13,328 bases of DNA from an uncultured Clostridiaceae bacterium (GTDB taxonomy: Bacteria > Bacillota > UBA994 > PWPR01), in the NCBI GenBank assembly GCA_964497955.1, contig CAZCFQ010000050.1:1-13328 (forward strand), in the 5' to 3' direction. Each line of letters begins with the position of its first letter. The first letter of the stretch is position 1. A program made the translations under genes and the position numbers. The notes beneath the pieces were generated by a model that did not search any database, was not told the origin of the DNA, and was given only the letters and a program-made list of their open reading frames with translations. Below are positions 1-12,920 of this stretch, in pieces.

Positions 1-1289
1 TTTTTAAGAGAAACCTAGCTCCAATTTCAGACCAAGCTTGGACTGAAATCGATGAAAGAGCAGAAGAAGTTATTAACACACAACTAACAACAAGAAAATC
101 TTTAAAAATTAATGGCCCATTTGGATTATCTTATACATCTGTACCAACAGGTCGTTTAGATTTAGTTGAGAATAAATCTTCAAATGTTAAAATTGGATTA
201 TATAATAATAAAAATTTATTAGAAACAAGAATATCATTTGACTTATCAAAATGGGAGTTGGATAATCTATTGAGAGGCGCTAAAGATATTGAATTAGATG
301 CTTTAGAGGAAGCCGCTATGGAAATTGCTCGTTATGAAGATGATGTTATTTATGATTTAAATGAGTTATTCCCAGATGAAAAAGCTAATATGATTGAGCA
401 AAAAATATTAGTAACACCAGGAACAATGTTAAGTCCTTCACAAATAATATTTCAGTTAAGTAGAAGGAAAAGAATTATAAATAAAGTTTATGGCAAGGTT
501 ATGTCTATTGATAAAAATGTGATCAAAATATCCACATTCAAAATCAATAGCGAGCTTAAAGCTTATATTCCTGGAAAAGTAGTTGATACTAACCACAAAG
601 ATTCAATTACGGTTGAAGGAGAAGTATATCAGTTACAAGGAGCTTATGGCCTTGGAGGAGAAAAGCAAGGAAATTTAAAAGTTATAAATGTAAATAGGAA
701 ATTTCAAAAGAGTGACTTAGAAGAAGGTTATAAAAAGAAAATTTTATTTATACCTAATGGGCTTACTCTTGAAGCATTGAAAGCAGCAAATAAGTTAGGT
801 GTTAGTGGAATAATAACCAATGCACTATCTTTTTCTAATGTTAAAAATTTTGCAGGTATTGATTTTGTTCCAGGAATTACTGGCAATGAATCGATTAATA
901 CAACATTACTTTTAGTTAAAGGATTTATAGATCAGCCAATCGAGAAAGAAATAGTTGAGTTTGTAAATGATTATGAAGGTAAATGGGTTTCAATGCGTGG
1001 GACAACACATATAAGAGCTGGTGCAATAAGGCCGGAATTAATAATGTCTCCAGAAGATAACATAAAGAGAGATTTTCAGTTCTTAGAAGATGAAATAGCA
1101 GAAGGAAAAACAGTAGAAATAAAGAGAAGTGGAAAAATGCATGGTAAAAAAGGAACTTTAGTTAAAATACATAGCAAACCAGAGAAGCTGCCATCATTGA
1201 TTAAAGTATTAGTTGCAACTGTAGATATAGATGGAAAAGAAGTTACTGTTCCACTTACTAATCTAGTACCAGCAGGGAGGTTAGATTAA
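1..1289 (+). CDS. Chimeric protein, 5'-partial, ~429 codons in window. The N-terminal ~118 aa are a family-1 encapsulin (linocin M18/CFP29) shell-protein fragment. They are fused in-frame to an uncharacterised ~310-aa C-terminal region. The frame is open from the window edge, first full codon at nt 3.
   Basis: Own translation from nt 3 gives FKRNLAPISDQAWTEIDERAEEVINTQLTTRKSLKINGPFGLSYTSVPTGRLD...NVKIGLYNNKNLLETRISFDLSKWELDNLLRGAKDIELDALEEAAMEIARYEDDVIYD. This aligns motif-for-motif with the Thermotoga maritima and Mycobacterium tuberculosis encapsulin N-termini (LAPxxxxxWxEID, GRL, RxxFTLxxxExDxxxRG, EAAxKxAxxEDxxIF). After ...YEDDVIYD the sequence (LNELFPDEKANMIEQ...KVLVATVDIDGKEVTVPLTNLVPAGRLD) shows no encapsulin A-domain or C-terminal motifs (GPYxLVLxxD, RGGDFxLxxGQD, ETxTF). 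The ORF track's 258..1289 is this frame from its first TTG; no stop lies upstream. The stop TAA 1287-1289 overlaps the next gene's ATG. Confidence 0.75.
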   Translation, partial: FKRNLAPISDQAWTEIDERAEEVINTQLTTRKSLKINGPFGLSYTSVPTGRLDLVENKSSNVKIGLYNNKNLLETRISFDLSKWELDNLLRGAKDIELDALEEAAMEIARYEDDVIYDLNELFPDEKANMIEQKILVTPGTMLSPSQIIFQLSRRKRIINKVYGKVMSIDKNVIKISTFKINSELKAYIPGKVVDTNHKDSITVEGEVYQLQGAYGLGGEKQGNLKVINVNRKFQKSDLEEGYKKKILFIPNGLTLEALKAANKLGVSGIITNALSFSNVKNFAGIDFVPGITGNESINTTLLLVKGFIDQPIEKEIVEFVNDYEGKWVSMRGTTHIRAGAIRPELIMSPEDNIKRDFQFLEDEIAEGKTVEIKRSGKMHGKKGTLVKIHSKPEKLPSLIKVLVATVDIDGKEVTVPLTNLVPAGRLD

Positions 1290-2284
1290 TGGAATCAACA
1301 AGAGTTTTTCTAAGAGGTTTAGATGCACGAATGGCTATTGAGAAATATGATGGACCTTTATATAATGCTTTATTTCCAAGGGCTTTAAGATACATGTGTA
1401 AGTGGGAAACAGGAGAAAAAGAAGATTTTGAAACAATGGAAGAATGGTTATGGATGAATAATATTGTTGAAGCAGAAAATGGTGTTACTTATCCTAAAGT
1501 ACCTATACTAACCGCAGGTTTAGCAAGTGAAATTAAGAAAAAAATTGATAAAACTTTTTCCAATAAAGATTATTGCATAGATAAAATTAAGAGAATATCA
1601 AAACAATTTGATAATTGGGAAGAAGTTGGACGTAATTTTGTTTCTCAAATAATTATAGGAGTATTATGGCTAAATGCATGGATGAAATCTAGTGATAATC
1701 CATGTGATCCAGCAGCTTTGATAATAACAGATTTAGATTTGAGTCCAGTATTCATGTCAGGTATTTCACCGCTTAAAGGTAATGAGATAATATCATATTG
1801 GCAAACTAACCAGTTAGGACATCCTGATACTTTGCATGACATATTAAATAATAGGGCAGTTGTTAAATCTTTAGAATCGATTAAAGATGATTATACATTT
1901 AATTCTGTAGAAAACACACTTGTTTTACTAAATAAGTTGAAAATGTATAAGACAAAAACTGGAGATGCTAATATACCAGTACCTTATATTAACTTGCCAA
2001 AAATAAGTCTTGATGATGTTAAAACTAGTCATGATGAATTGGTTGATTTAGCGAGTAATTTTTTAGATAAGATTGATAAGTTAGATCATATAGCTAAAGC
2101 ATTTTATGAGAATAGACCAGCTATTTTGAAAAAAGTTGATTATTATAATTATAGAAATATGGTTTTTCTTGTCTATAGTTATTGTTCTATAGAAAAGTAT
2201 CTAAATGCTGGTGTCTTTGTTGAAGGTAAGCTAGCAAAGGATACTAAAAGTAAAAAGTCTAATCCAAAATGGACAATGCTATAA
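1289..2284 (+). CDS. Hypothetical protein, 331 aa. No family recognised. Predicted soluble. Translationally coupled to the upstream chimeric gene.
   Basis: The ATG at 1289 overlaps the upstream stop (TAATG). GGGAGG at 1275-1280 sits 8 nt upstream. It is a long uninterrupted ORF with coding-like composition. No motifs I can assign (contains ...SDNPCDPAA..., several Trp). Confidence 0.7.
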   Translation: MESTRVFLRGLDARMAIEKYDGPLYNALFPRALRYMCKWETGEKEDFETMEEWLWMNNIVEAENGVTYPKVPILTAGLASEIKKKIDKTFSNKDYCIDKIKRISKQFDNWEEVGRNFVSQIIIGVLWLNAWMKSSDNPCDPAALIITDLDLSPVFMSGISPLKGNEIISYWQTNQLGHPDTLHDILNNRAVVKSLESIKDDYTFNSVENTLVLLNKLKMYKTKTGDANIPVPYINLPKISLDDVKTSHDELVDLASNFLDKIDKLDHIAKAFYENRPAILKKVDYYNYRNMVFLVYSYCSIEKYLNAGVFVEGKLAKDTKSKKSNPKWTML

Positions 2285-2300
2285 TAGGGAGGTTATACAA

Positions 2301-2450
2301 ATGGGATTTTTTGATAAAATAAAAGAAATTTTTATAGGAAAACCTGTAACAGGGGTAGCCATCATTACTGATGTAGAAGAAGTAGAGAGTTATCTAGAAC
2401 AAATTGTAGATGAGACTATAAAAAAGAAAAATCAGGATAATAACCAGTGA
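2301..2450 (+). CDS. Small hypothetical protein, 49 aa, acidic (MGFFDKIKEIFIGKPVTGVAIITDVEEVESYLEQIVDETIKKKNQDNNQ).
   Basis: Not in the supplied ORF track (below its size cut-off) but seen in the sequence. ATG at 2301 is preceded by GGGAGG (2287-2292) with an 8-nt spacer, the same SD arrangement as the upstream gene. It lies 16 nt after the upstream stop and 21 nt before the EamA start. Confidence 0.5.
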   Translation: MGFFDKIKEIFIGKPVTGVAIITDVEEVESYLEQIVDETIKKKNQDNNQ

Positions 2451-2471: not shown

Positions 2472-3383
2472 TTGATAAAAGAATATAAACCATATTTGTC
2501 AGGCCTTATATATGCATCTATATTTGGCCTGTCCTTTATGGTTACAAAAAATGTTTTAAATTTTATAGAACCGTTTCATTTTTTAGGTTTAAGATTCTTA
2601 GCTGCAACAATATTAATGAGTTTATTAATATTCTTTAAAGTTATTAAAGTAGATTATAAAAAAAAGAGTATAAAGCCAATCTTAATGTTATCTATACTTC
2701 AACCAGTTATATATTTTACAGGAGAAATATATGGGGTGAAGAATATAACATCCTCACAAGCAGGTATGATGATTGCTTTGATACCAATTTTTGTTACTAT
2801 ATTAAGCGCAATTATTCTTAAAGAGTATGTAAATTTTCGTCAACTAATTTGCATTATATGTTCTGTTTTGGGAGTTATGTTAATTACCATAATGCAAAGT
2901 GGAGTAAATGGAGAAAGTAAACTAATTGGTTATTTTTTTATTTTAGCAGCTGTTTTAGCAGGAGCAGGATTTAGTGTATCATCTAGAAAACTATCTGTAG
3001 ATTATAAACCATTTGAGCTAACGTATATAATGATGATTGTGGGAGCTGTTTTTTTTAATATATTAGGAGTTTCACAAGTTGGCTTTGAAACATACTTCTT
3101 ACCTTTAAGTAATATTGATGTTTTACAAGCGTTAATATATCTAGCTTTTTTGTCCTCAATAATTGCTTTCGGTTTAATGAATTATACATTATCAAAAATA
3201 CCAGCTGCAAGAGCGGCACTATTTGCTAACTTAACAACAATTATATCTATTATTGCTGGTGTTGTTTTAAGAGGCGAGCCATTTTTCTGGTTTCATTTAA
3301 TTGGGGGATCAATGATATTATTTGGTGTAATTGGAGTTAACAGATTTGCTAATAAAAAAACAGTTGATTATTTTAAGAAATAA
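2472..3383 (+). CDS. EamA/DMT-superfamily (drug/metabolite transporter) permease, 303 aa, ~10 TM segments.
   Basis: Highly hydrophobic throughout, with two repeated 5-TM halves typical of EamA domains (LSGLIYASIFGLSFMVTK... / ...FILAAVLAGAGFSVSSRKL...). TTG start. Co-directional with the three upstream genes, separated from the last by a 21-nt gap. Confidence 0.8.
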   Translation: MIKEYKPYLSGLIYASIFGLSFMVTKNVLNFIEPFHFLGLRFLAATILMSLLIFFKVIKVDYKKKSIKPILMLSILQPVIYFTGEIYGVKNITSSQAGMMIALIPIFVTILSAIILKEYVNFRQLICIICSVLGVMLITIMQSGVNGESKLIGYFFILAAVLAGAGFSVSSRKLSVDYKPFELTYIMMIVGAVFFNILGVSQVGFETYFLPLSNIDVLQALIYLAFLSSIIAFGLMNYTLSKIPAARAALFANLTTIISIIAGVVLRGEPFFWFHLIGGSMILFGVIGVNRFANKKTVDYFKK

Positions 3384-3975
3384 TCAACTTTATTCCAAAA
3401 TATACTAGAATAATAGCAGATGCTTTATTAAGAATAATTTGTATATTTGAGTTTATTAAATTTTTACTATAAGAAACAACAAGAGACAAAATACTAAACC
3501 ATAAAAGTGAAGAGATTGAAAATCCTACTATAAAGAATGACCTGGATATTGAAGAAGTGAAAGAAGAGTACATGCTCCCCAATATTACTGAACCATCAAG
3601 TAAGGCTTGAGGGTTTAGCCAAGTTATCGCAAATGGAGTTAAAATAAGCTTTGATCTATTTAGGGTTTTGTCAGAGCTAGTATCTTTTGGCTTAGTGTTC
3701 CAGATATTATATGAAACTATTAAAATTGCAAAAAACCCTAAATATGATATATATGATGATAAAGATGAAAATTTTGTAATCAATCTTCCAATGCCTAAAA
3801 AACAAAACACAGCGAGACTAATATCATTTACAATTGTTAGAAAAACTGTTATTAGAAGTTCTTTCTTTGTATAGTTGATAGAACTATTAATTATGTACAT
3901 ATTTTGCATTCCAATGGGTGCCACATAAGCAAAACCCATTAATAATCCCTGAAATAGTATATTCAAATTAATCAC
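3373..3975 (-). CDS. LysE/ArgO (RhtB-superfamily) amino-acid exporter, 200 aa.
   Basis: The N-terminus ILFQGLLMGFAYVAPIGMQNMYII aligns with E. coli ArgO [24 protein letters not shown] and C. glutamicum LysE ITGLLLGASLLLSIGPQNVLVI. ITWLNPQALLDGSVILGS matches the ArgO TWLNPHVYLDTFVVLGS motif. GTG start at 3975. The 3' end overlaps the convergent EamA gene by 11 nt. Confidence 0.8.
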   Translation of the reverse strand: MINLNILFQGLLMGFAYVAPIGMQNMYIINSSINYTKKELLITVFLTIVNDISLAVFCFLGIGRLITKFSSLSSYISYLGFFAILIVSYNIWNTKPKDTSSDKTLNRSKLILTPFAITWLNPQALLDGSVILGSMYSSFTSSISRSFFIVGFSISSLLWFSILSLVVSYSKNLINSNIQIILNKASAIILVYFGIKLIIS

Positions 3976-3980
3976 CTGAA

Positions 3981-3993
3981 ATGTATTATACCA
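3981..3993. promoter_or_regulatory. Face-to-face overlapping extended -10 elements in the divergent LysE / PLP-enzyme intergenic region. TGtATTATA reads on the + strand and TGgTATAAT on the - strand, forming a partial palindrome TGTATTATACCA.
   Basis: Read directly from the sequence. The - strand TGGTATAAT lies only ~9 nt upstream of the LysE GTG, giving a near-leaderless transcript. The + strand element lies ~35-40 nt upstream of the ORF5 ATG (RBS AGAGGAAAA). No experimental support. Confidence 0.3.
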
Positions 3994-4029
3994 AAATAAT
4001 TTAATATTTAATAAGAAAAGAGGAAAAAA

Positions 4030-5160
4030 ATGAATTTTAAAAGCGTTAGGGAAATTGCTCCAATGGTTAACAAAGTATCTTATTTAGAAACACCTGCTAG
4101 AGGATTGAATCTAAAGCCAATAGTACAAAATTCCATAAATGCTATAACTGGTTGGGAAACATTCGATGAAGAAATTAGTAATGCAAAACTTAGAAAAGAA
4201 GTAAATGAAAAACTATCAAATCTATTAAAAGTTAGTGCTAATAATGTTACTTGTACTAATTGTACTTCTCATGGATTGAGTATTATTGCTAACTCTTTTC
4301 CATTTGAGAAAGGTGACAATATTATTATGTCAGAATCAGAACATCCAAATAACTTTTATCCATGGGCACAATTAAAAAATAAAGGCATAGATATTAGAAT
4401 AGCAAAGTCAAAAAATGGTTTTATTGACTTTGACAATATTGCTGACTTAGTAGACGAAAAGACAAAAATAATAGCTTTGTCATTAGTCAGTTTTTATCCT
4501 GGGTCATATAATGATGTTAAAATTTTAAAAGAAAAGATAAACAATAATAATGTATTTATTGTTTTGGATGTCATACAAGCACTTGGCTTTTTACCAATTT
4601 ATCCAGAAGAACTTGGTGTAGATGCAATAGCTTCTGCTTCATACAAAGGTCTTATGAGCCCTCACGGTGGCGGTATCCTATACGTTAGTGATAAACTGCT
4701 AAGTTTATTGGCACCTGATGAAGTAACTATGTTAAACGTATCAGATAGGTCTTTATTTCCTGTTTTAGATTATACTCTAATTGAATCAGCTGATAAGTTG
4801 CAGCCAATGCCAATTAATGTAGCACAATTAGCTTCTATGAGTGCTGCATTAGATATTATTTTAGATTTAGGTATAGAAAATATAGGAAAATATTTAAATG
4901 AGTTAGCTAGAAAAATGGTAGATGATTTAAATAATGTGGGTGTTAAAACAAAATTATCAAGTAATGATGATAGGCTTAAGCATATAGTATGTTTTGATGA
5001 AGAAAAAAATAAAGAATTAGCTCAATATGCAAAAGAAAATGGTGTATACATTAGTCCTAGAAGAACAGGAATACGAATGGGATTTCATATTTACAATAAC
5101 TTTGAAGATGTAGATAAAGCAGTGAAGGTAATAGATAAGTTTTATAAAAACAATAAGTAA
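4030..5160 (+). CDS. Aminotransferase class-V-fold PLP-dependent enzyme with SufS/CsdA-like architecture. It lacks the cysteine-desulfurase catalytic Cys. 376 aa.
   Basis: GDNIIMSESEHPNNFYPWAQL...EKTKIIALSLVSFYPGSYNDV...VFIVLDVIQALGFLPIYPEELGVDAIASASYKGLMSPHGGGILYVS aligns with SufS [21 protein letters not shown]...[21 protein letters not shown]...[40 protein letters not shown]. The PLP-Lys is retained (SASYK). The C-terminal RTGIRMGFHIYN replaces the SufS RTGHHCA loop, so there is no Cys. Confidence 0.75.
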   Translation: MNFKSVREIAPMVNKVSYLETPARGLNLKPIVQNSINAITGWETFDEEISNAKLRKEVNEKLSNLLKVSANNVTCTNCTSHGLSIIANSFPFEKGDNIIMSESEHPNNFYPWAQLKNKGIDIRIAKSKNGFIDFDNIADLVDEKTKIIALSLVSFYPGSYNDVKILKEKINNNNVFIVLDVIQALGFLPIYPEELGVDAIASASYKGLMSPHGGGILYVSDKLLSLLAPDEVTMLNVSDRSLFPVLDYTLIESADKLQPMPINVAQLASMSAALDIILDLGIENIGKYLNELARKMVDDLNNVGVKTKLSSNDDRLKHIVCFDEEKNKELAQYAKENGVYISPRRTGIRMGFHIYNNFEDVDKAVKVIDKFYKNNK

Positions 5161-5164
5161 ATAA

Positions 5165-5211
5165 AATGCCAATAACTGATAATTATAGTTATTGGCATTG
5201 TTTTATGTTTT
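5165..5211. terminator. Bidirectional rho-independent terminator between the convergent ORF5 and the tryptophanase-like gene.
   Basis: Perfect 13-bp inverted repeat AATGCCAATAACT (5165-5177) / AGTTATTGGCATT (5187-5199) with a 9-nt loop. It is followed on the + strand by GTTTTATGTTTTATATTTTTTT. On the - strand the transcript continues into TTTATTTA. Confidence 0.7.
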
Positions 5212-6583
5212 ATATTTTTTTAAATTTAGCTGTAAAATGTCTTAATATATCTGTTTCATATGTAATTTGTAAGCCTGTGATAGACTCTTTCCTATCGTAA
5301 ATATTTTTTAAGCCATTAGCTACTACGTCCATATGATTATTAGTATAGACTCTTCTTGGAATAGTTAATCTTAACAGTTCTAATTCTGGATAATCATGTT
5401 CACCAGTGTTAGGATCTCTACCAGCTAAAACTGTACCAATTTCCACTCCTCTAACACCAGCTTCAATGTATAACTCTACACCGAGAGCTTGAGCAGGAAA
5501 CTCATCTTGACTTAAGTGAGGTAAAAATCTTTTTGCATCTATATAGATAGCATGGCCTCCTGGTGGCTCCATTATTGGGATACCTGCTTCTAATAGTTTT
5601 TGACCTAAGTAATTAGTTTGACCAATTCTATATGATAAGTAACTTTCTTCTATAACTTCTTGTAAACCTCTTGAAATAGCTTCTAAATCTCTTCCAGCTA
5701 GTCCTCCATAAGTTGGAAAACCTTCAAATAATACAGCTAATGAACTCGCCTTTTGATACAAATCTTTATCTCTCAATGCTAAAAATCCACCGATGTTAAC
5801 GATCGCATCTTTTTTAGCACTCATTGTGCATCCATCTGCGTAACTAAACATTTCTCTTACAATTTCTTTTATGCTTTTGTTCTCAAAGCCTGGTTCTCTT
5901 TGTTTGATGAAATATGCATTTTCAGCAAATCTACATGCATCAATATAGAAAGGTAGATTATAACTTTTAGCAATCTCACTAACTCCTTTAATATTCCCCA
6001 TTGAAACTGGTTGTCCACCACCGCTGTTACAAGTAATTGTTAGAAGTATAAGAGGTATGTTATCTACTCCTTTGTCTTCAATAAAATTTTGGAGTTTATT
6101 TAGATCCATATTACCTTTAAAAGAGTAATTAGAAGTAGAATCATAAGCTTCATCTATGACTAAATCTACGGGGATACCTTTTTTATGTAGCACATGTGCT
6201 TTAGTTGTGTCAAAATGCATGTTATTAGGAATATAATCATTTTCATTAACTAATAATGATAATAAAAGGTTCTCTGCTGCTCGTCCTTGGTGAGTTGGTA
6301 CAAACTCTGGAAATCCTAATATATCTTTTATAGTTTCTTTAAGGTTAAAGAAATTTCTACTTCCAGCATATGATTCATCACCGATCATCATTCCTGCCCA
6401 TTGATAATCACTCATAGCATTTGTTCCACTATCTGTTAACAAATCGATATATACTTGGTCAGAACTAAGACTAAAAAGATTGTAATTAGCTTCTTTGATA
6501 TATTTGCTTCTTTCCTCCTTTGTAGTCATTTTGATTGGTTCAACAACTTTGATCTTAAATGGTTCTGCAGGATAATTCTGCAT
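5210..6583 (-). CDS. tnaA: Beta-eliminating lyase of the tryptophanase / tyrosine phenol-lyase family, 457 aa. Probably tryptophanase (tryptophan indole-lyase).
   Basis: Near end-to-end similarity to E. coli TnaA and Citrobacter TPL: YIDLLTDSGTNAMSD.QWAGMM.GDE.YAGS, PTHQGRAAE, GGQPVS, DACRFAENAYFIKQRE, EMFSYADGCTMSAKKD (PLP-Lys), FPTYGGLAGRD, PPGGHA, DEFPAQAL, LRLTIPRRVYT, LRHFTAKF. The residues discriminating the two enzymes are Trpase-like. HFDTT has Asp at the position of TnaA D137 where TPL has T124. VEIGTVL has Ile at the position of TnaA I396 where TPL has R381. That assignment is from memory and is inference. Confidence 0.85.
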   Translation of the reverse strand: MQNYPAEPFKIKVVEPIKMTTKEERSKYIKEANYNLFSLSSDQVYIDLLTDSGTNAMSDYQWAGMMIGDESYAGSRNFFNLKETIKDILGFPEFVPTHQGRAAENLLLSLLVNENDYIPNNMHFDTTKAHVLHKKGIPVDLVIDEAYDSTSNYSFKGNMDLNKLQNFIEDKGVDNIPLILLTITCNSGGGQPVSMGNIKGVSEIAKSYNLPFYIDACRFAENAYFIKQREPGFENKSIKEIVREMFSYADGCTMSAKKDAIVNIGGFLALRDKDLYQKASSLAVLFEGFPTYGGLAGRDLEAISRGLQEVIEESYLSYRIGQTNYLGQKLLEAGIPIMEPPGGHAIYIDAKRFLPHLSQDEFPAQALGVELYIEAGVRGVEIGTVLAGRDPNTGEHDYPELELLRLTIPRRVYTNNHMDVVANGLKNIYDRKESITGLQITYETDILRHFTAKFKKI

Positions 6584-6690
6584 ATTATCATTCCTTTCAG
6601 ATATTTTATTTAATATTAGACAAAAAGTTAAGAAATCCTTTATTTATAGAGTCATTAAAATATTTCTAATGATAACTCTTTTAAACAACA

Positions 6691-6716
6691 ACTATCTTTA
6701 GTATTATAAAGATAGT
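6691..6716. promoter_or_regulatory. Perfect 10-bp inverted repeat ACTATCTTTA-gtatta-TAAAGATAGT. Candidate operator or 5'-UTR hairpin in the divergent tnaA / S9-peptidase intergenic region.
   Basis: Read directly. It sits 22 nt upstream of the peptidase TTG start and 7 nt upstream of its AAGGAGGG RBS. On the - strand it reads TTTGACTATCTTTATAATACTAAAGATAGT, so it embeds TTGACT and TATAAT hexamers facing tnaA. Confidence 0.4.
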
Positions 6717-6737
6717 CAAATATAAGGAGGGTTTAGA

Positions 6738-8702
6738 TTGAATCTAAAACCAGAAGATATACTGAAATTTCAAGCAGCAGGAGACCAGCAATGGTTAGAT
6801 GAAAAGGGAGCATTTGTATTTGTAAAAAAGATTTATGATGATGGTAAATCTAAAAATGCAATTTTCTGTTATAGAAGTACTGGAGAGGTTAAACAGTTAA
6901 CTAATTATAATGAAAATGCTAATAAGCCTAGAATATCACCTTGTGGTAAGTACCTAGCCTTTGTAAAAAAAGATGATAATAAAAATGTTTTATCAATAAT
7001 GAAGCTAGATAATAATGAAGTTATTATTTCTCAGGATTCAAAAGGAATAGTAGGAGCTCCTGTTTGGTCAAATGATAGTAAAAAGATTGCATTTATTAAA
7101 AATGTAGAAGTTTTAAATGATGATTATAAGGGAAGTCCAAAATCTATAAATGAAAAATATTTATATGAAGATAAAGTTAAAGTTATAGATGATATCAGAT
7201 ATAGATATAATGAAAAAGGCTATTTTGGAAATAATAAAAACCAGCTCTTTGTTGTAAGCTTAAATGGCTTTGATTTGACAAAAGCAGAGAGAATTACTGA
7301 TTTTAACTTAGATATCTTAAGTCCTGTTTTTAGTAAAGACAATAGAAAAATCTATTTTATATCAAATCCACACTCAGAAGGTAAGAAAAATTTAATAAGT
7401 AATATATATTGTGTAGATATTAATTCTAAAAAAATTGAGTTGAAAGTAAAGGGCAAAGGTTCTATTAGTAATTTACAAATTTCACCCTCTGGAAAACTAT
7501 TATCATTTTTAGCACAAAATGATGAAACTATGGACTTATGGTTCGATTGTTTGTATGTTTATGATATTGGGCAACAAAATGACCTTGATGAAGTGAAAAA
7601 TGTAACTAAGAATTTAGATAGAATAGTTTGCAAGGTTCCAAGTAGTGGTGAGAGATATCCTTCATCACTTCCTAAATATAAATGGAATAGCAAAAGTAAT
7701 GGGTTTTATATAATATACCCAGAGGCAGGAGCTTCTGTATTAGCTGAAATTGATTTTTATGGTAAGCCATCAATTCTTTATTATGATCCCAATCAAACAG
7801 TTAGTTCATTCGATGAAGTAAATGGTAAATTTCTTATAACTTTAGGAGATGCTGAAAATACTGAGGATATATATGAGTTAGGTCAAAATCTAATAATAAA
7901 AGTACAAACCAATCAATGGTTAAATGAATATGAGTTAGGAAAAGTGAATCGATTTAGATTCAACGGTGATAGTTATATGCAAATAGATGGCTGGTACATA
8001 AAACCAGATGGTATCAAACAGCCAAACAAATCTATTCTATTCATTCACGGTGGACCACATGGTATGTATGGTAGTAGTTTTATGTTCCAAGCTCAAATTT
8101 TAGCTTCAAATGGTTTTACAGTTACATATATTAATCCAAGGGGCAGTGCTTCTTATGGCTTCGAATTTGCTAACATGGTATATCAAGACTGGGGAGGAGC
8201 AGATTTTAGAGACATTATGCTTGGCATAGACTATCTGATAGATAATGAAATTATAGATAAAGATAGAATTGGAGTTACTGGATGGAGTTATGGCGGATAC
8301 ATGACTTGTTGGACCATAAGTCAAACAAATAGATTTAAAGCAGCTTTAGCTGGCGCAAGTGTTGTCGACAGATATAGTATGTTTGGTACTAGTGATATAG
8401 GGTATAATTTTGGTTTTTATCATTTTGGTGGAACTCCTTGGGAAAATTCTCATAAATTAGTCGAGAGGTCTCCTATTAATTATGCATATAAAATTGATAC
8501 TCCATTACTTTTAATTCATGGTGAAGAAGACTACAGATGCCCAATTGGCCAATCAGAAGAAATTTTCACTGCTTTGAAATATTTAAATAAAGAGGTAGTT
8601 ATGGTTAGATATCCTAAAGAACCTCATAACTTTAAAAAACCATATCATTTAATCGATAGATATAGTAGGCTTTTAAGCTGGTTTGAGCATTATATTAAAT
8701 AG
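6738..8702 (+). CDS. S9-family serine peptidase (prolyl oligopeptidase / acylaminoacyl-peptidase type), 654 aa. N-terminal beta-propeller plus C-terminal alpha/beta-hydrolase domain.
   Basis: Catalytic Ser in GVTGWSYGGYMT (GxSxGG), Asp in LLLIHGEEDYRCP, His in YPKEPHNF. FIHGGPHG oxyanion-region motif. TTG start with AAGGAGGG (6724-6731) 6 nt upstream. Confidence 0.85.
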   Translation: MNLKPEDILKFQAAGDQQWLDEKGAFVFVKKIYDDGKSKNAIFCYRSTGEVKQLTNYNENANKPRISPCGKYLAFVKKDDNKNVLSIMKLDNNEVIISQDSKGIVGAPVWSNDSKKIAFIKNVEVLNDDYKGSPKSINEKYLYEDKVKVIDDIRYRYNEKGYFGNNKNQLFVVSLNGFDLTKAERITDFNLDILSPVFSKDNRKIYFISNPHSEGKKNLISNIYCVDINSKKIELKVKGKGSISNLQISPSGKLLSFLAQNDETMDLWFDCLYVYDIGQQNDLDEVKNVTKNLDRIVCKVPSSGERYPSSLPKYKWNSKSNGFYIIYPEAGASVLAEIDFYGKPSILYYDPNQTVSSFDEVNGKFLITLGDAENTEDIYELGQNLIIKVQTNQWLNEYELGKVNRFRFNGDSYMQIDGWYIKPDGIKQPNKSILFIHGGPHGMYGSSFMFQAQILASNGFTVTYINPRGSASYGFEFANMVYQDWGGADFRDIMLGIDYLIDNEIIDKDRIGVTGWSYGGYMTCWTISQTNRFKAALAGASVVDRYSMFGTSDIGYNFGFYHFGGTPWENSHKLVERSPINYAYKIDTPLLLIHGEEDYRCPIGQSEEIFTALKYLNKEVVMVRYPKEPHNFKKPYHLIDRYSRLLSWFEHYIK

Positions 8703-8717
8703 GGAGGAGACTTATAT

Positions 8718-9110
8718 ATGTGGTTATTGAAAACAGAACCAAGTGATTATTCTTATGAAGATCTAGAAAATGAAGGTAAAGCGATTTGGGACGGTGTAAA
8801 AAACCATCAAGCAGTAAACAACATGAAAAAAATGAAAAAAGGTGAGAAAGTATTTTTCTATCATACGGGTAGAAAACATCGTGAAATAGTAGCTATTTGT
8901 GAAGTTAGTAGAGAAAGTTATGAGTATGAAGATTATACAGTAGTTGAAGTTTCACCAGTTGGGAAATTAAATAGGCCTGTAACATTGAAAGAAATTAAGA
9001 GTGATGATTTCTTTGCCGAATGGGCATTAGTAAGACAAAGTAGATTATCAGTAGTACCTGTAAAGAAAGAGTATTGGAACAAGATAATTGAAATGTCCGA
9101 AGAAGAGTAA
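8718..9110 (+). CDS. EVE-domain (PUA-like) protein, 130 aa.
   Basis: MWLLKTEPSDYSYEDLENEGKAIWDGVKNHQAVNNMKKMKKGEKVFFYHTG...IVAICEV matches the EVE consensus WLMKSEP..YSIDDL......WDGVRNYQARNFMR.MK.GD.V.FYHS......IVGIAEV. GGGAGGA RBS at 8702-8708. It starts 15 nt after the peptidase stop, so it is likely co-transcribed. Confidence 0.8.
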   Translation: MWLLKTEPSDYSYEDLENEGKAIWDGVKNHQAVNNMKKMKKGEKVFFYHTGRKHREIVAICEVSRESYEYEDYTVVEVSPVGKLNRPVTLKEIKSDDFFAEWALVRQSRLSVVPVKKEYWNKIIEMSEEE

Positions 9111-9129
9111 TTGAAAATATACTTAGTAA

Positions 9130-9172
9130 CCCCCATATGTTAGAAATAAACATAAGGGGGCTTTGTATATAT
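9130..9172. terminator. Hairpin terminator between the convergent EVE gene and the amidohydrolase gene. Probably bidirectional.
   Basis: CCCCCaTATGTT (9130-9141) / AACATAaGGGGG (9149-9160): 11 of 12 positions pair, with a 7-nt loop. It is followed on the + strand by CTTTGTATATATT. The T-tract is weaker for the - strand. Confidence 0.5.
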
Positions 9173-9191
9173 TATAAGGGATTATTAGTTT

Positions 9192-10814
9192 TTAAAGATT
9201 ATTAAAAATTATTCTTCCATCTGTTATATTACAAAGAACATTTATATCCTTTATTTCTTTTTCTTCTACAGATAAAATATCTTTATCAATCACAATTAAA
9301 TCAGCAAGTTTACCTTTTTCTAATGAGCCAACTCTGTCCTCCATAAATGCTAATTTTGCGCCATTCAGAGTATACATTCTAATTGCATCTAATCTTGAAA
9401 CTCTCTCATCATTACCTAAACTTTTCCCTTGTGAGGTCTTTCTAGTAATTGCACTATATAAAACTAAGAAAGGATTATAATGTGCTGAAGTCATATCTGA
9501 ATTGATTGCCACTAATATATCATTTTTAAGATATGTGTTAAGTGGTTTAAAACTATACACCTTTTCTTCTTCTATAACATCAAAATATATGTCACCTTCA
9601 ACATAAATGAATCCAGGTTGAGCTGATATGGCTATATTGTTTTTATGCATTAAATGAAGGCTCTGTTCGCTTGGAAAATATCCGTGAATAATATTATGTC
9701 TGGCTTTTGGGTTATAGTTTTCTGTTATTACTTTATCAAAAGTTTTAACTGCGATATCTTGAGCCTTTTCTCCGCAGCAATGTATTCCAACAGACCAATG
9801 ATATTTTTGAGCAGTCTCAAAATAATAGGGCAATTTTTCAACATCAAGTCTTAAAGGAATTTCACTACTTGAACCATCTAAATATGGTTCATACATTAAT
9901 GCAGATTTACTCCCTAATCCGCCATCTATTGCCATTTTCAAAGCGCCTAAACTCAACCAATCGTCACCAAATCCATTTACAACACCCATGTTCTCTACCA
10001 TTGGTGTTAAGTCACTTCCTTTTGCAGCATACAAACCATTATAAACAGGCATCATATTGATTCGAATATCTAGCTGATTTTTGTCATATAAATCTTGATA
10101 CGCATATCTCCTTAAAGTAGTTACCCCGGGGTCAATGATGGTAGTGATTCCATACTTTTGATATTCTTTAAGCGCTCTTTTAATATCTTCCTGGGCTGAC
10201 TTAACAGTATTGCCAGCTTGTTCTGATGGAATAACATTACGAACTAGATTTGAAGCCTCATTATACAACACTCCTGTCGGGACTCCATTTTTATCTTTTG
10301 CAATTTGCCCTCTCCAAGGATTAGGAGTATTTTTATCTATACCCGCCAACTTTAAAGCAAGACTATTTGCTACAACAGCTCCAAATAGTCTTGATAAAAC
10401 AACTGGATTATCTGGAGAAACTTCATCAAGATCCCACCTTGTTGGCTCTCTATATTCTTCAAATTGACTTTCAATCCATCCTCCACCAAGAATCCATTCA
10501 CCTTTTCGTGATTTTCTAACTTTCTCATAAACTCTTTGGTTCATTTCACTAATATTCTTTGCACCAAAGAGCATGACACCTGAAAGTAGTTTTCCTGCTG
10601 CCCCTGTGTGGTTGTGGGAATCAACAATCCCAGGCATAACAGTTCTGCCTTTTAAATCAATCAATAAGGTATCACGATTCTGATATTCTTTTAATTTAGT
10701 AAACCTACCAGTATCAATAATTTTATTTTCTTTTAAAGCAATCGCCTCAGTAATAGTATCATTTTTGTCCACAGTTATTATTTTGCCATTATACATAATT
10801 AAACTTGCGTCCAT
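9192..10814 (-). CDS. Amidohydrolase-family (Amidohydro_3-type) metal-dependent hydrolase, 540 aa.
   Basis: N-terminal MYNGKIITVDKN...AIALKENKIIDTG...LIDLKGRTVMPGIVDSHNHTG, with the metal-binding HxH. C-terminal ...INSDMTSAHYNPF... is typical of the family. AGGAGG (rc of 10821-10826) lies 6 nt upstream of the ATG. Confidence 0.8.
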   Translation of the reverse strand: MDASLIMYNGKIITVDKNDTITEAIALKENKIIDTGRFTKLKEYQNRDTLLIDLKGRTVMPGIVDSHNHTGAAGKLLSGVMLFGAKNISEMNQRVYEKVRKSRKGEWILGGGWIESQFEEYREPTRWDLDEVSPDNPVVLSRLFGAVVANSLALKLAGIDKNTPNPWRGQIAKDKNGVPTGVLYNEASNLVRNVIPSEQAGNTVKSAQEDIKRALKEYQKYGITTIIDPGVTTLRRYAYQDLYDKNQLDIRINMMPVYNGLYAAKGSDLTPMVENMGVVNGFGDDWLSLGALKMAIDGGLGSKSALMYEPYLDGSSSEIPLRLDVEKLPYYFETAQKYHWSVGIHCCGEKAQDIAVKTFDKVITENYNPKARHNIIHGYFPSEQSLHLMHKNNIAISAQPGFIYVEGDIYFDVIEEEKVYSFKPLNTYLKNDILVAINSDMTSAHYNPFLVLYSAITRKTSQGKSLGNDERVSRLDAIRMYTLNGAKLAFMEDRVGSLEKGKLADLIVIDKDILSVEEKEIKDINVLCNITDGRIIFNNL

Positions 10815-10825
10815 TATATTCCTCC

Positions 10826-10854
10826 TTGTTAAAAATAGTCATAATAGTTATAAT
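10826..10854 (+). promoter_or_regulatory. Sigma-A-type promoter for the GAF/fRMsr gene. -35 TTGTTA (10826-10831), 17-nt spacer, perfect -10 TATAAT (10849-10854).
   Basis: Read directly. The predicted TSS is ~10861. That favours ATG 10882 (RBS AAGGGTGA) over GTG 10873 as the real start. The -35 overlaps the RBS of the divergent amidohydrolase gene. Confidence 0.45.
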
Positions 10855-10872
10855 TGAAAAAAAGTATTAAGG

Positions 10873-11376
10873 GTGATAAGTATGTTTAGACTAGAAAAGA
10901 AAAATTTCAAAAATAAATTAGAGTTGTACGAGTACATGAACAATATGTTAAAACATTTGATATCAGATGAAACGGATGCTATAGCTAATCTTTCAAATGC
11001 AGCTAGTTTATTTGGGCATATAATGCCTGAAATAAACTGGGCAGGTTTTTACCTTTATAGAAACAATGAATTAGTTCTAGGGCCATTCTGGGGTAAACCA
11101 GCTTGTACTAGGATTACAATGGGTGAAGGGGTTTGTGGTACAGCCGCAAAGTTTCAAAAAGTGCAATTAGTTGATAATGTTGATCTGTTTCCAGGACACA
11201 TTGCATGTGATTCAGCTTCTAAATCAGAAATAGTATTACCTATTGTTAAAGATGGTAAACTTAAAGCTGTTTTAGATATTGATAGCCCAATCTTAGCAAG
11301 ATTTAATCAAGAAGATAAAAAAGGTTTACTAAAAGCAATTGATATTTTACAAAGCATAAATTGGGATATGATATAA
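10873..11376 (+). CDS. GAF-domain free methionine-(R)-sulfoxide reductase (fRMsr, YebR/MsrC family). The true start is probably ATG 10882, giving 164 aa.
   Basis: NWAGFYLYRNNELVLGPFWGKPACTRITMGEGVCGTAAKFQKVQLVDNVDLFPGHIACDSASKSEIVLPIVKDGKLKAVLDIDSPILARFNQEDKKGL matches E. coli YebR WVGFYLL...ELVLGPFQGKIACVRIPVGRGVCGTAVARNQVQRIEDVHVFDGHIACDAASNSEIVLPLVV...GVLDIDS..FGRFTDEDEQGL, including the catalytic Cys residues. Confidence 0.85.
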   Translation: MISMFRLEKKNFKNKLELYEYMNNMLKHLISDETDAIANLSNAASLFGHIMPEINWAGFYLYRNNELVLGPFWGKPACTRITMGEGVCGTAAKFQKVQLVDNVDLFPGHIACDSASKSEIVLPIVKDGKLKAVLDIDSPILARFNQEDKKGLLKAIDILQSINWDMI

Positions 11377-11389
11377 AATTTCAATTTCC

Positions 11390-11412
11390 AGGCACACTAG
11401 TGCCTTTTTTAT
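11390..11412 (+). terminator. Rho-independent terminator after the fRMsr gene.
   Basis: AGGCAC-acta-GTGCCT stem-loop followed by TTTTTTATTTTATT. Confidence 0.65.
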
Positions 11413-11483
11413 TTTATTCTACAAAAGTATTAAATTACCTTTTTAACAAGAAGTATTTTATTATTACATAAGAATAACAGCCC

Positions 11484-11512
11484 TTGACTAATATAAAAAA
11501 CTCGTGTAAGTT
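11484..11512 (+). promoter_or_regulatory. Possible promoter for the MATE gene. -35 TTGACT (11484-11489), 17-nt spacer, weak -10 TAAGTT.
   Basis: A perfect -35 hexamer but a poor -10. Low confidence. The RBS AGGAG is at 11542-11546. Confidence 0.25.
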
Positions 11513-11555
11513 TTAGTAGTGATTATTTTTGTAGTCGAAATATAGGAGTTATATA

Positions 11556-12920
11556 ATGAATAAAAGAGTAGATGATGCATTGATAACAGAGAGCACAAAT
11601 TTAACAAAAACAGTTTGGCTACTAGCATGGCCTGTTATAGTAGAAATGTTATTGCTAACTCTAACTGGGATAGTAGACATGGCTATGGTAGGAAGATTGG
11701 GTCCAGCTGCTATTGCAGCAGTTGGTCTAGGTAATCAGTTTGTTATGCTAACAACAACAGCTTTTGCAGCAATTAGAACTGGTACAACTGCTTTGGTTGC
11801 AAGACATATTGGTGCAAAAGACTCAGAAGGAGCACATTTAATAGCTAGACAATCAATTATATTAACAATTATTTTAGCTCTTACTACAGTCATAAGTTTT
11901 TATTTTTTAGCAGAATGGGGATTAAAATTACTCGGTGCTGAAAAAGCGGTAATTGAGTTAGGTATTTGGTATATTAGACTTAGAACTTTTGGATTAGCTT
12001 TTCACTTTTTTACAATGATATTTACAAGTATGTTAAGGGGTAGTGGAGATACTAAAACGCCAATGGTAGTCAATATAATTATCAATATTGTAAACCCGAT
12101 ATTAAACTACGGTTTTATATTTGGGCATTTTGGTTTACCTCAATTAGGTGTTACTGGAGCAGCTTTAGCTACAGCTTTAGCACATATTATTGGTTTTATA
12201 ATTATCTCTAGAGTCATTTTTAGTGGAAAAAGTATTATTAAGTTAAGCCTTAAAGATGACTACAAGTTAGATAAATTACAGATCAAAAGAATACTTAATA
12301 TTGGGATACCAGCAATGGTAGAGTCAGTTGCAATGAGAATAGCACAAATTATATATACAATGATTTTAACATCATTAGGCACCGTCACTTATGCAGCTCA
12401 CCAAGTTGCAATAAGAGCAGAATCACTCTCTTTTATGCCAGGATGGGGTTTTGGGGTTGCAGCAACTACTTTAATAGGACAAAATTTAGGAGCACAAAAA
12501 CTACAAAGAGCTGAAAAAAGTGGCTATGTTGCAAGAAATATGGCTTTAGCAGTGGCTTGCACAATGGGAGTTCTGTTTTTCTTTTTCCCGGTTCATTTTG
12601 TTAGAATTTTCACTAATGATCCAGGTGTGATTGACCAAGCCTCTAGAGTTTTACGAATGATAGCTATCGCTCAACCTTCTACAGCTATTAACTTGGTTTT
12701 ATCAGCAGCTTTAAGAGGTGCTGGAGATACAAGATGGGTAACTTATATTACAAGTTCATCAGTATGGATAGTTAGGCTATCAATAGCAGCTTTCTGTGTA
12801 TTTGTACTTGAAATGGGAATCATAGGAGCTTGGTTAGGAATGCTAATTGATATGATTGTTAGGTCTATTTTATTCAGTATCAGATATGCTAAAGGAAAAT
12901 GGAAGCACATAAAAGTATAA
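11556..12920 (+). CDS. MATE-family (NorM-like) multidrug/toxic-compound efflux transporter, 454 aa, 12 TM.
   Basis: The N-terminus ...KTVWLLAWPVIVEMLLLTLTGIVDMAMVGRLGPAAIAAVGLGNQ is the MATE signature. Hydrophobic 12-TM profile with two repeated halves. ATG start with AGGAG 7 nt upstream. Confidence 0.85.
   Translation: MNKRVDDALITESTNLTKTVWLLAWPVIVEMLLLTLTGIVDMAMVGRLGPAAIAAVGLGNQFVMLTTTAFAAIRTGTTALVARHIGAKDSEGAHLIARQSIILTIILALTTVISFYFLAEWGLKLLGAEKAVIELGIWYIRLRTFGLAFHFFTMIFTSMLRGSGDTKTPMVVNIIINIVNPILNYGFIFGHFGLPQLGVTGAALATALAHIIGFIIISRVIFSGKSIIKLSLKDDYKLDKLQIKRILNIGIPAMVESVAMRIAQIIYTMILTSLGTVTYAAHQVAIRAESLSFMPGWGFGVAATTLIGQNLGAQKLQRAEKSGYVARNMALAVACTMGVLFFFFPVHFVRIFTNDPGVIDQASRVLRMIAIAQPSTAINLVLSAALRGAGDTRWVTYITSSSVWIVRLSIAAFCVFVLEMGIIGAWLGMLIDMIVRSILFSIRYAKGKWKHIKV

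Follow-up and report, generated by a model that had tools for sequence, protein, structure and literature searches.

The 13,328-bp contig CAZCFQ010000050.1 (assembly GCA_964497955.1) of an uncultured Clostridiaceae bacterium, referred to here as the window because the whole contig was analysed, encodes an orphan protein of 331 amino acids (aa), named gene 2, directly behind an open reading frame (ORF 3-1289) that runs off the 5' end of the contig. This upstream ORF starts with a fragment of a family-1 encapsulin and continues as a second protein, named g1. The original prediction, made from the sequence alone, had considered gene 2 as a translationally coupled candidate partner of this chimeric protein. 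Comparison with homologous loci places gene 2 instead as an orphan family within a new variant of GlmL-type ATPase operons. The features of the window involved are the following.

3..353, forward strand: N-terminal fragment of a family-1 encapsulin (~117 codons), open at the contig 5' end and contig-specific.
336..353, forward strand: junction microhomology GAAGATGATGTTATTTAT (E-D-D-V-I-Y), 18 nt, encoded by both encapsulin and native g1 in a codon-by-codon comparison.
336..1289, forward strand: C-terminal three quarters of native g1, with the second barrel-sandwich-hybrid (BSH) domain, a swivelling beta/beta/alpha domain and a KOW/SH3 domain.
1275..1280, forward strand: Shine-Dalgarno (SD) sequence GGGAGG of gene 2, with an 8-nt spacer, within the conserved A-G-R codons of the g1 end and conserved across loci.
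1289..2284, forward strand: gene 2, orphan 331-aa protein, as seen in the ORF list, the homologues, the substitution rates and the AlphaFold2 (AF2) model.
2287..2292, forward strand: SD sequence GGGAGG of the small downstream gene, read 8 nt before its ATG.
2301..2450, forward strand: acidic protein of 49 aa with an isoelectric point (pI) of 4.5 and the core KPVTGVAIISDVEEVE..LEEIV, fourth gene of the cassette.

Gene 2 is a genuine gene and not a chance ORF, since full-length homologues exist and purifying selection acts on it; the DNA has ~30% G+C. Among 5.8 billion clusters, six proteins align with it over the entire length, at 58-100% identity; the full-length homologues have identities of 58-79%, and remoter relatives go down to 17%. 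The ratio of nonsynonymous to synonymous substitution rates (dN/dS) is ~0.10 and ~0.14 against the two nearest orthologues (dN 0.13/dS 1.27 and dN 0.21/dS 1.46, respectively), resembling that of the neighbouring genes, and purifying selection on gene 2 is strong. Its start codon (ATG, 1289-1291) overlaps the stop codon of the upstream ORF (TAA, 1287-1289) in a TAATG arrangement, which together with the GGGAGG 8 nt upstream matches exactly what had been described from the sequence.

The earlier statement that gene 2 fits no family is maintained after the searches with Pfam and NCBIfam on gene 2 and with Pfam on 14 family members, none of which gave a significant match, and the comparison of its predicted structure to the PDB with Foldseek, the check proposed with the original prediction, gave nothing significant and no family placement. 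Similarly, the PDB sequence-profile search with gene 2 had no match, and the anti-phage defence HMMs (hidden Markov models) of PADLOC gave one chance-level match only (GajB, E 0.0015, 15.5 bits). A 1067-aa repeat protein found in the search of representatives (P0015) was a repeat-inflated weak match with no informative domains and was set aside. The lack of a Pfam or NCBIfam match agrees with the proposed absence of known cargo types (DyP, ferritin-like) and extends to the classes EncFtn, IMEF and hemerythrin, and neither a cargo-loading peptide nor a DDxxD motif, both also reported as missing from gene 2, is present in any family member; the G[ST]L motif is absent from the first 40 and last 40 residues of all 14. 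Additionally, the B12-binding DxHxxG motif is absent from every member and no conserved Cys, His or Asp motifs were found among them. Across the 14 members, P72 is the sole invariant position, and the nine positions conserved in at least 90% of them (M1, L54, W110, W131, Q172, P237, I239, L265 and R276) are mostly hydrophobic or aromatic, a conservation that is not of a catalytic type.

Outside the window, gene 2 was found in 20 fetched records (L001-L012 and L096-L102) holding 10 distinct gene-2 sequences, with L003/L004/L012/L097, L001/L100, L005/L096, L006/L098, L007/L008 and L101/L102 as duplicates. Wherever the contigs of these 20 records reach, GlmL-like ATPase, g1, gene 2 and the small ORF follow one another in this order, with gene-2 identities to the window of 17-79%; the native cassettes encode an ATPase of ~597 aa, a g1 of 365-435 aa and a small acidic protein of ~48 aa. 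The small ORF was not detected in L009. As the orphan family is defined, its members have ~305-337 aa and lie directly downstream of, and coupled to, a g1 that itself follows the ~597-aa GlmL-like ATPase, and gene 2 belongs to it; the ATPase is missing from the window because the contig ends. The part of the original prediction that made gene 2 a translationally coupled partner of the upstream gene stands, since homologous loci with identities as low as 17-26% keep both the coupling and the order. Six other loci (L001, L002, L003, L005, L011 and L101) also combine the TAATG overlap with a GGAGG-type SD, located in the conserved ..PAGRL[ED] end of g1, and L006 and L098 keep the GGAGG SD with an overlap of 8 nt instead. 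Overlaps of the TAATG or ATGA type are maintained across the cassette loci, as are the GGAGG SDs, and because the four genes are translationally coupled the cassette proteins are probably made in matched amounts.

The unannotated small acidic protein has 13 invariant columns (alignment A3) and a dN of 0.07 against L011, and its HMM matches are confined to gene-2 loci, so it is seen only beside gene 2; judged by this conservation, the small ORF is a real gene. The gene-2 family is very rare: among 1.84 billion representatives, ~10 clusters (50% identity) belong to it. A genome scan with a 10-sequence alignment matched 5 of 185,579 species-representative genomes, all Clostridia or Bacillota metagenome-assembled genomes; the count is to be taken as a minimum, given that the scan relies on sequence patterns. 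The full cassette is also present in the isolate Clostridium sp. 'deep sea' (complete genome, CP063353.1, positions 1011852-1033153, reverse strand), whose gene 2 shares 32.5% identity with that of the window.

Native g1 is preceded and overlapped by the GlmL/MutL-like ASKHA ATPase of ~597 aa (Pfam MutL PF13941, E 1.5e-114), which has a C-terminal extension of ~130 aa and reaches 230 bits against the 475-bit cut-off of the NCBIfam GlmL equivalog, therefore forming a clade separate from GlmL. In every homologous locus, the N-terminus of g1 is a BSH (biotinyl/lipoyl-like) domain, which carries 10 of the 31 invariant positions of the g1 family; this first domain (~118 aa) is the one that the window g1 lacks. 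The PDB sequence searches with the ATPase and g1 gave generic BSH/KOW matches only, and in these searches no cassette protein matched a solved structure. The BSH domains of NqrA, RnfC and BCCP were also listed with the identity of the upstream gene.

Wherever a gene-2 locus extends far enough, the cassette is directly preceded by the genes hutH-hutU-FTCD-hutI-FTCD_C; what follows the cassette differs between loci. The hut genes were located as follows.

hut genes upstream of the cassette: L001 400-6686; L003 471-6767; L011 1770-8052; L098 252-6623; L101 1289-8001.

In L011, hut and the cassette are set apart by a terminator-like hairpin AGGGCTAATTTC...GAAATTAGCCCT (8077-8109) and by a promoter-like site; no riboswitch was detected when the leader of this native cassette was scanned with Rfam.

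The first two genes of the cassette are part of a much wider module. A scan of highly diverse metagenomes gave more than 571 relatives of the cassette ATPase at ~50% identity, with a g1 homologue directly after the ATPase in 70 of the 78 cases with room downstream and gene 2 in none. In this widespread operon (L013-L091), g1 (~375 aa) is followed by DUF6754 (PF20539) and three more protein families (~220, 282 and 250 aa), all of them with predicted transmembrane segments in a Kyte-Doolittle scan. Two examples are the following.

L090, 5812-12499: widespread operon.
L059, 5995-12702: widespread operon.

The widespread operon and the gene-2 cassette share the first two genes, their order and their tight spacing, with ATPases that are ~50% identical; however, the former has transmembrane-predicted proteins where the latter has gene 2 and the 48-aa protein, and the linkage to hut was not seen in the two loci examined (L059 and L090). 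An hhalign comparison of the gene-2 alignment (A2) with six partner-protein alignments of the widespread operon gave probabilities of at most 0.2%. Full-text literature searches for DUF6754 and PF13941 returned no papers, and those on GlmL and glutamate mutase/MutL/ASKHA returned nothing relevant. Five of the loci (L016, L017, L019, L033 and L074) have two tandem copies of the GlmL-like ATPase/g1 pair, in which a longer g1 (~460 aa) and a protein of ~110-150 aa are followed by a second ATPase (~620 aa) and a second g1. Compared with the widespread form of g1 (370-385 aa), the Clostridia type (433-459 aa) has an insertion of ~60 residues (alignment A4, columns 143-240; g1 residues ~115-185).

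The AF2 model of gene 2, built from an input of 14 sequences, has a mean local confidence (pLDDT) of 71.6 and a predicted template-modelling score (pTM) of 0.75, and corresponds to a mostly helical bundle with helix-strand-strand, winged-helix-like elements. Residues 159-197 (GNEIISYWQT..GHPDT) are the most conserved among close homologues, yet have pLDDT values below 50, as does the conserved C-terminal KDTK..P.W tail. Segments that are conserved but modelled with low pLDDT are typical of interfaces. The central helix (residues 110-133) is hydrophobic; in the two remotest members alone it scores like a transmembrane segment (Kyte-Doolittle scan).

Taken as a whole, the best explanation, to which about an even chance is given, is that gene 2 would be a soluble and probably non-catalytic adaptor or scaffold subunit of a four-protein ATPase machine, made of the GlmL/MutL-superfamily ASKHA ATPase, g1, gene 2 and the acidic protein of ~48 aa. 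The gene order and the low-confidence conserved segments suggest that these proteins may form a physical complex, in which residues 159-197 and the KDTK..P.W tail would be the docking surfaces of gene 2. Gene 2 and the small protein are a lineage-specific pair, in the operon position taken by membrane proteins elsewhere, and may give the ATPase-g1 core its target or its location in this clade of Clostridia. The target may belong to the fermentation of histidine or glutamate, because the cassette is always directly downstream of hut. A more specific and tentative version, which has well under an even chance, considers gene 2 and the 48-aa protein as a soluble module of new fold that replaces the membrane subunits and redirects the machine to a cytoplasmic target on the way from histidine to glutamate, for example to activate or repair, in an ATP-dependent way, an enzyme of hut or of the glutamate pathway.

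Several points weigh against the adaptor. The absence of invariant polar residues across relatives of 17% identity is compatible with catalysis, the adjacency to hut could be synteny inherited within one clade, and the hairpin and promoter-like site of L011 part the cassette from hut. Also, the role of GlmL-type ATPases is itself only presumed, and the cassette ATPase is far below the cut-offs of the GlmL family (230 vs 475 bits). The window holds neither the ATPase gene nor the first g1 domain, which leaves the complete cassette unconfirmed in the source organism.

Gene 2 could also be the client, and not a subunit, of the GlmL-like ATPase and g1, as a histidine/glutamate-fermentation enzyme of new fold that would depend on them for folding, cofactor loading or reactivation. 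GlmL relatives are presumed to act on partner enzymes. NCBIfam describes them as accessory to glutamate mutase and to an ornithine-degradation cluster, and the conserved adjacency to hut and the strong purifying selection on gene 2 would suit an enzyme; however, the gene-2 family has almost no invariant polar residue and no cofactor motifs, and elsewhere the ATPase-g1 core pairs with membrane proteins and not with a soluble enzyme. A client role is accordingly considered unlikely.

The partnership with encapsulin depends on what the upstream ORF is. The identification of its start as an encapsulin fragment is supported by both Pfam (Linocin_M18, E 1.2e-35, with ORF residues 2-118 corresponding to model positions 5-121 of 253) and NCBIfam (encap_f1, 110.8 bits against a cut-off of 100). 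However, a phmmer search with this fragment over all the ORFs of the gene-2 loci matched the window alone, and the relatives whose upstream sequence extends over ~7-10 kb have no encapsulin there. The co-occurrence expected from the original prediction is thus lacking, since no other gene-2 locus has an encapsulin; the linkage on which that prediction turned does not extend to other genomes, while gene 2 has not matched a housekeeping enzyme either. Because the native loci hold the swivel/KOW protein and its ATPase and no encapsulin, gene 2 is to be seen as the partner of these two proteins.

The similarity of the window to L011, L001, L003, L002 and L005 begins at 332-336, around codon 119 of g1 (blastn), and the encapsulin part has only 335 nt, at the contig end. 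At the junction, the parent sequences are ..AR[YF]-E-D-D-V-I-Y-NG in the encapsulin and ..[SAV]-E-D-D-V-[VI]-Y-DLNELFP in native g1. Because the 18-nt microhomology encodes the same hexapeptide in both parents, an in-frame join can arise without any selection, and because the junction lies in this shared stretch, at a distance of 335 nt from where the contig stops, a chimeric end is likelier than a real fusion. It is also favoured because a fusion would lose the first g1 domain and the ATPase gene. The G+C content is uniform (~0.30) across the junction, which was counted both for a chimeric end and for a real fusion. From these sequence features, the encapsulin N-terminus on the upstream ORF is probably an assembly chimera, and a real, strain-specific rearrangement has the lower, still appreciable, probability. 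In either case, gene 2 has no conserved link to encapsulin.

An independent ENA contig (L010), 99.92% identical to the window over 3,744 bp, starts at window position 372, 19-36 nt from the junction, which speaks against an artefact and probably marks some real discontinuity there, either a coverage gap or a true breakpoint. A near-identical full-length encapsulin, which would prove the chimera, was searched for and only relatives of 47-75% identity were obtained; similarly, the missing half of the source organism's locus (hut, GlmL and the g1 N-terminus) was not recovered in the metagenome scan, where the best match had 77% identity. The junction also coincides with the start of the ~60-residue insertion of the Clostridia-type g1, on the boundary that follows the first BSH domain.

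The EncFtn-encapsulin loci L092-L095 hold the nearest relatives of the encapsulin fragment. In L092 (3239-4211) and L093 (2954-3926), the encapsulin follows EncFtn and has an N-terminal deletion and an in-frame TAA, located precisely at the Tyr codon of EDDVI(Y)NG, where the window junction also falls; in L094 and L095 (~2760-3900), a frameshift splits the encapsulin into pieces of 139 aa and 114 aa. These disrupted copies may be pseudogenes, split genes or the product of sequencing errors.

A real and functional fusion of the encapsulin N-terminus to the upstream protein, with gene 2 as its cargo or partner, would account for an ORF that is continuous and in frame across a junction of uniform G+C (~0.30); the near-identical contig that ends 19-36 nt away hints at a real discontinuity, and the disrupted genes of L092-L095 indicate that encapsulins of that group do rearrange. 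This is nevertheless quite unlikely. Encapsulin is absent from the other gene-2 loci and gene 2 has no cargo-loading peptide. Of the 253 positions of the Linocin_M18 model, the fragment spans only 5-121, and the remainder of the shell protein is missing. A fragment of this kind of the HK97 fold should not assemble into a shell. Additionally, the chimera would lack the first g1 domain, with its 10 of 31 invariant positions, and the ATPase would be lost as well. No selection is needed to account for the in-frame join, given a microhomology of 18 nt located 335 nt from the contig end. Even if physically real, the encapsulin-g1 fusion would be a strain-specific and probably inactivating rearrangement.

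The winged-helix-like elements could instead be those of a DNA-binding regulator of the cassette or of genes for hut/amino-acid catabolism, a very unlikely role for a gene coupled mid-operon between structural genes. Pfam detected no helix-turn-helix family by sequence in any gene-2 member, most of the 331-aa protein is outside the winged-helix-like parts, and the pI of the homologues spans 5.2 to 9.1. Winged-helix folds are also common as protein-protein modules. Least likely of all is a distant SpaB_C/pyridine-synthase-like enzyme of ribosomally synthesized and post-translationally modified peptides (comparison group of SpaB_C fold: the pyridine synthases PbtD/TbtD and the NisB elimination domain), with the winged-helix element for leader recognition and the 49-aa ORF as the precursor peptide, since the conservation of the small protein exceeds that of gene 2, its central core is invariant and its variable tail is rich in Lys, Glu and Asn with no Cys/Ser/Thr-rich core, no other enzymes of such peptides or proteases are nearby, and the ATPase-g1 core is widespread without such a peptide.

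Downstream of the cassette, the window continues with a transporter gene.

2472..3383, forward strand: EamA/DMT transporter gene (Pfam EamA, E 2.1e-42), 22 nt after the small gene.

No terminator-like site was found between 2284 and 2472, and this gene is possibly co-transcribed with the cassette. The adjacency is not kept in the remoter gene-2 loci L098, L099 and L101, which have a tRNA synthetase gene instead. The region 2472-12920 is syntenic with the relatives, and its families, with names inferred from synteny with annotated relatives, include the EamA transporter, a LysE exporter (reverse strand), a class-V aminotransferase, a beta-eliminating lyase of the tryptophanase/tyrosine phenol-lyase type (reverse strand), an S9 peptidase, an EVE-domain protein, an amidohydrolase (reverse strand), a GAF protein and a MATE transporter.

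As far as encapsulins are concerned the outcome is negative: the locus provides neither a new system derived from them nor a new type of cargo, and support from reads is needed before the "chimeric encapsulin" enters any catalogue. The ATPase-g1 core abounds in environmental bacteria, and gene 2 is the mark of a rare, soluble variant of the operon with this core; the soluble four-protein version in the cultured Clostridium sp. 'deep sea' would be the easiest biochemical entry to the putative machine. The wider module of ATPase, g1 and membrane proteins is the more interesting lead, mostly outside the window.

Among known systems, family-1 encapsulin operons encode cargo with a C-terminal targeting peptide (Andreas & Giessen 2021, PMC8346489). 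The likeness to them is that gene 2 follows a Linocin_M18-fragment ORF, in the window contig only; the window differs in having no full shell gene, in a gene 2 without a targeting peptide and in the lack of co-occurrence elsewhere. A second comparison is that with ATP-dependent reactivases such as DdrA, which combine a swivelling beta/beta/alpha module with an ASKHA ATPase. Unlike DdrAB, GdrAB and EutA, the cassette has its ATPase and swivel domain on separate polypeptides and no B12 enzyme nearby; there is no sequence similarity to these systems, in which gene 2 has no counterpart. A third comparison is with the GlmL/MutL operons of B12-dependent glutamate mutase (glmS-glmL-glmE) and of ornithine degradation (Or-4), which likewise have a GlmL-superfamily ASKHA ATPase, and the cassette ATPase also matches the NCBIfam GlmL and Or-4 models. 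Unlike glmS-glmL-glmE, the cassette has no adjacent mutase subunits, and gene 2 has neither the B12-binding motif nor a Pfam match; the partners of its ATPase are also different from those of GlmL systems, being a BSH/swivel/KOW protein, gene 2 and the 48-aa protein, none in a named family. As in the GlmL operons, the cassette is found in amino-acid-fermenting Clostridia, beside genes that make glutamate from histidine.

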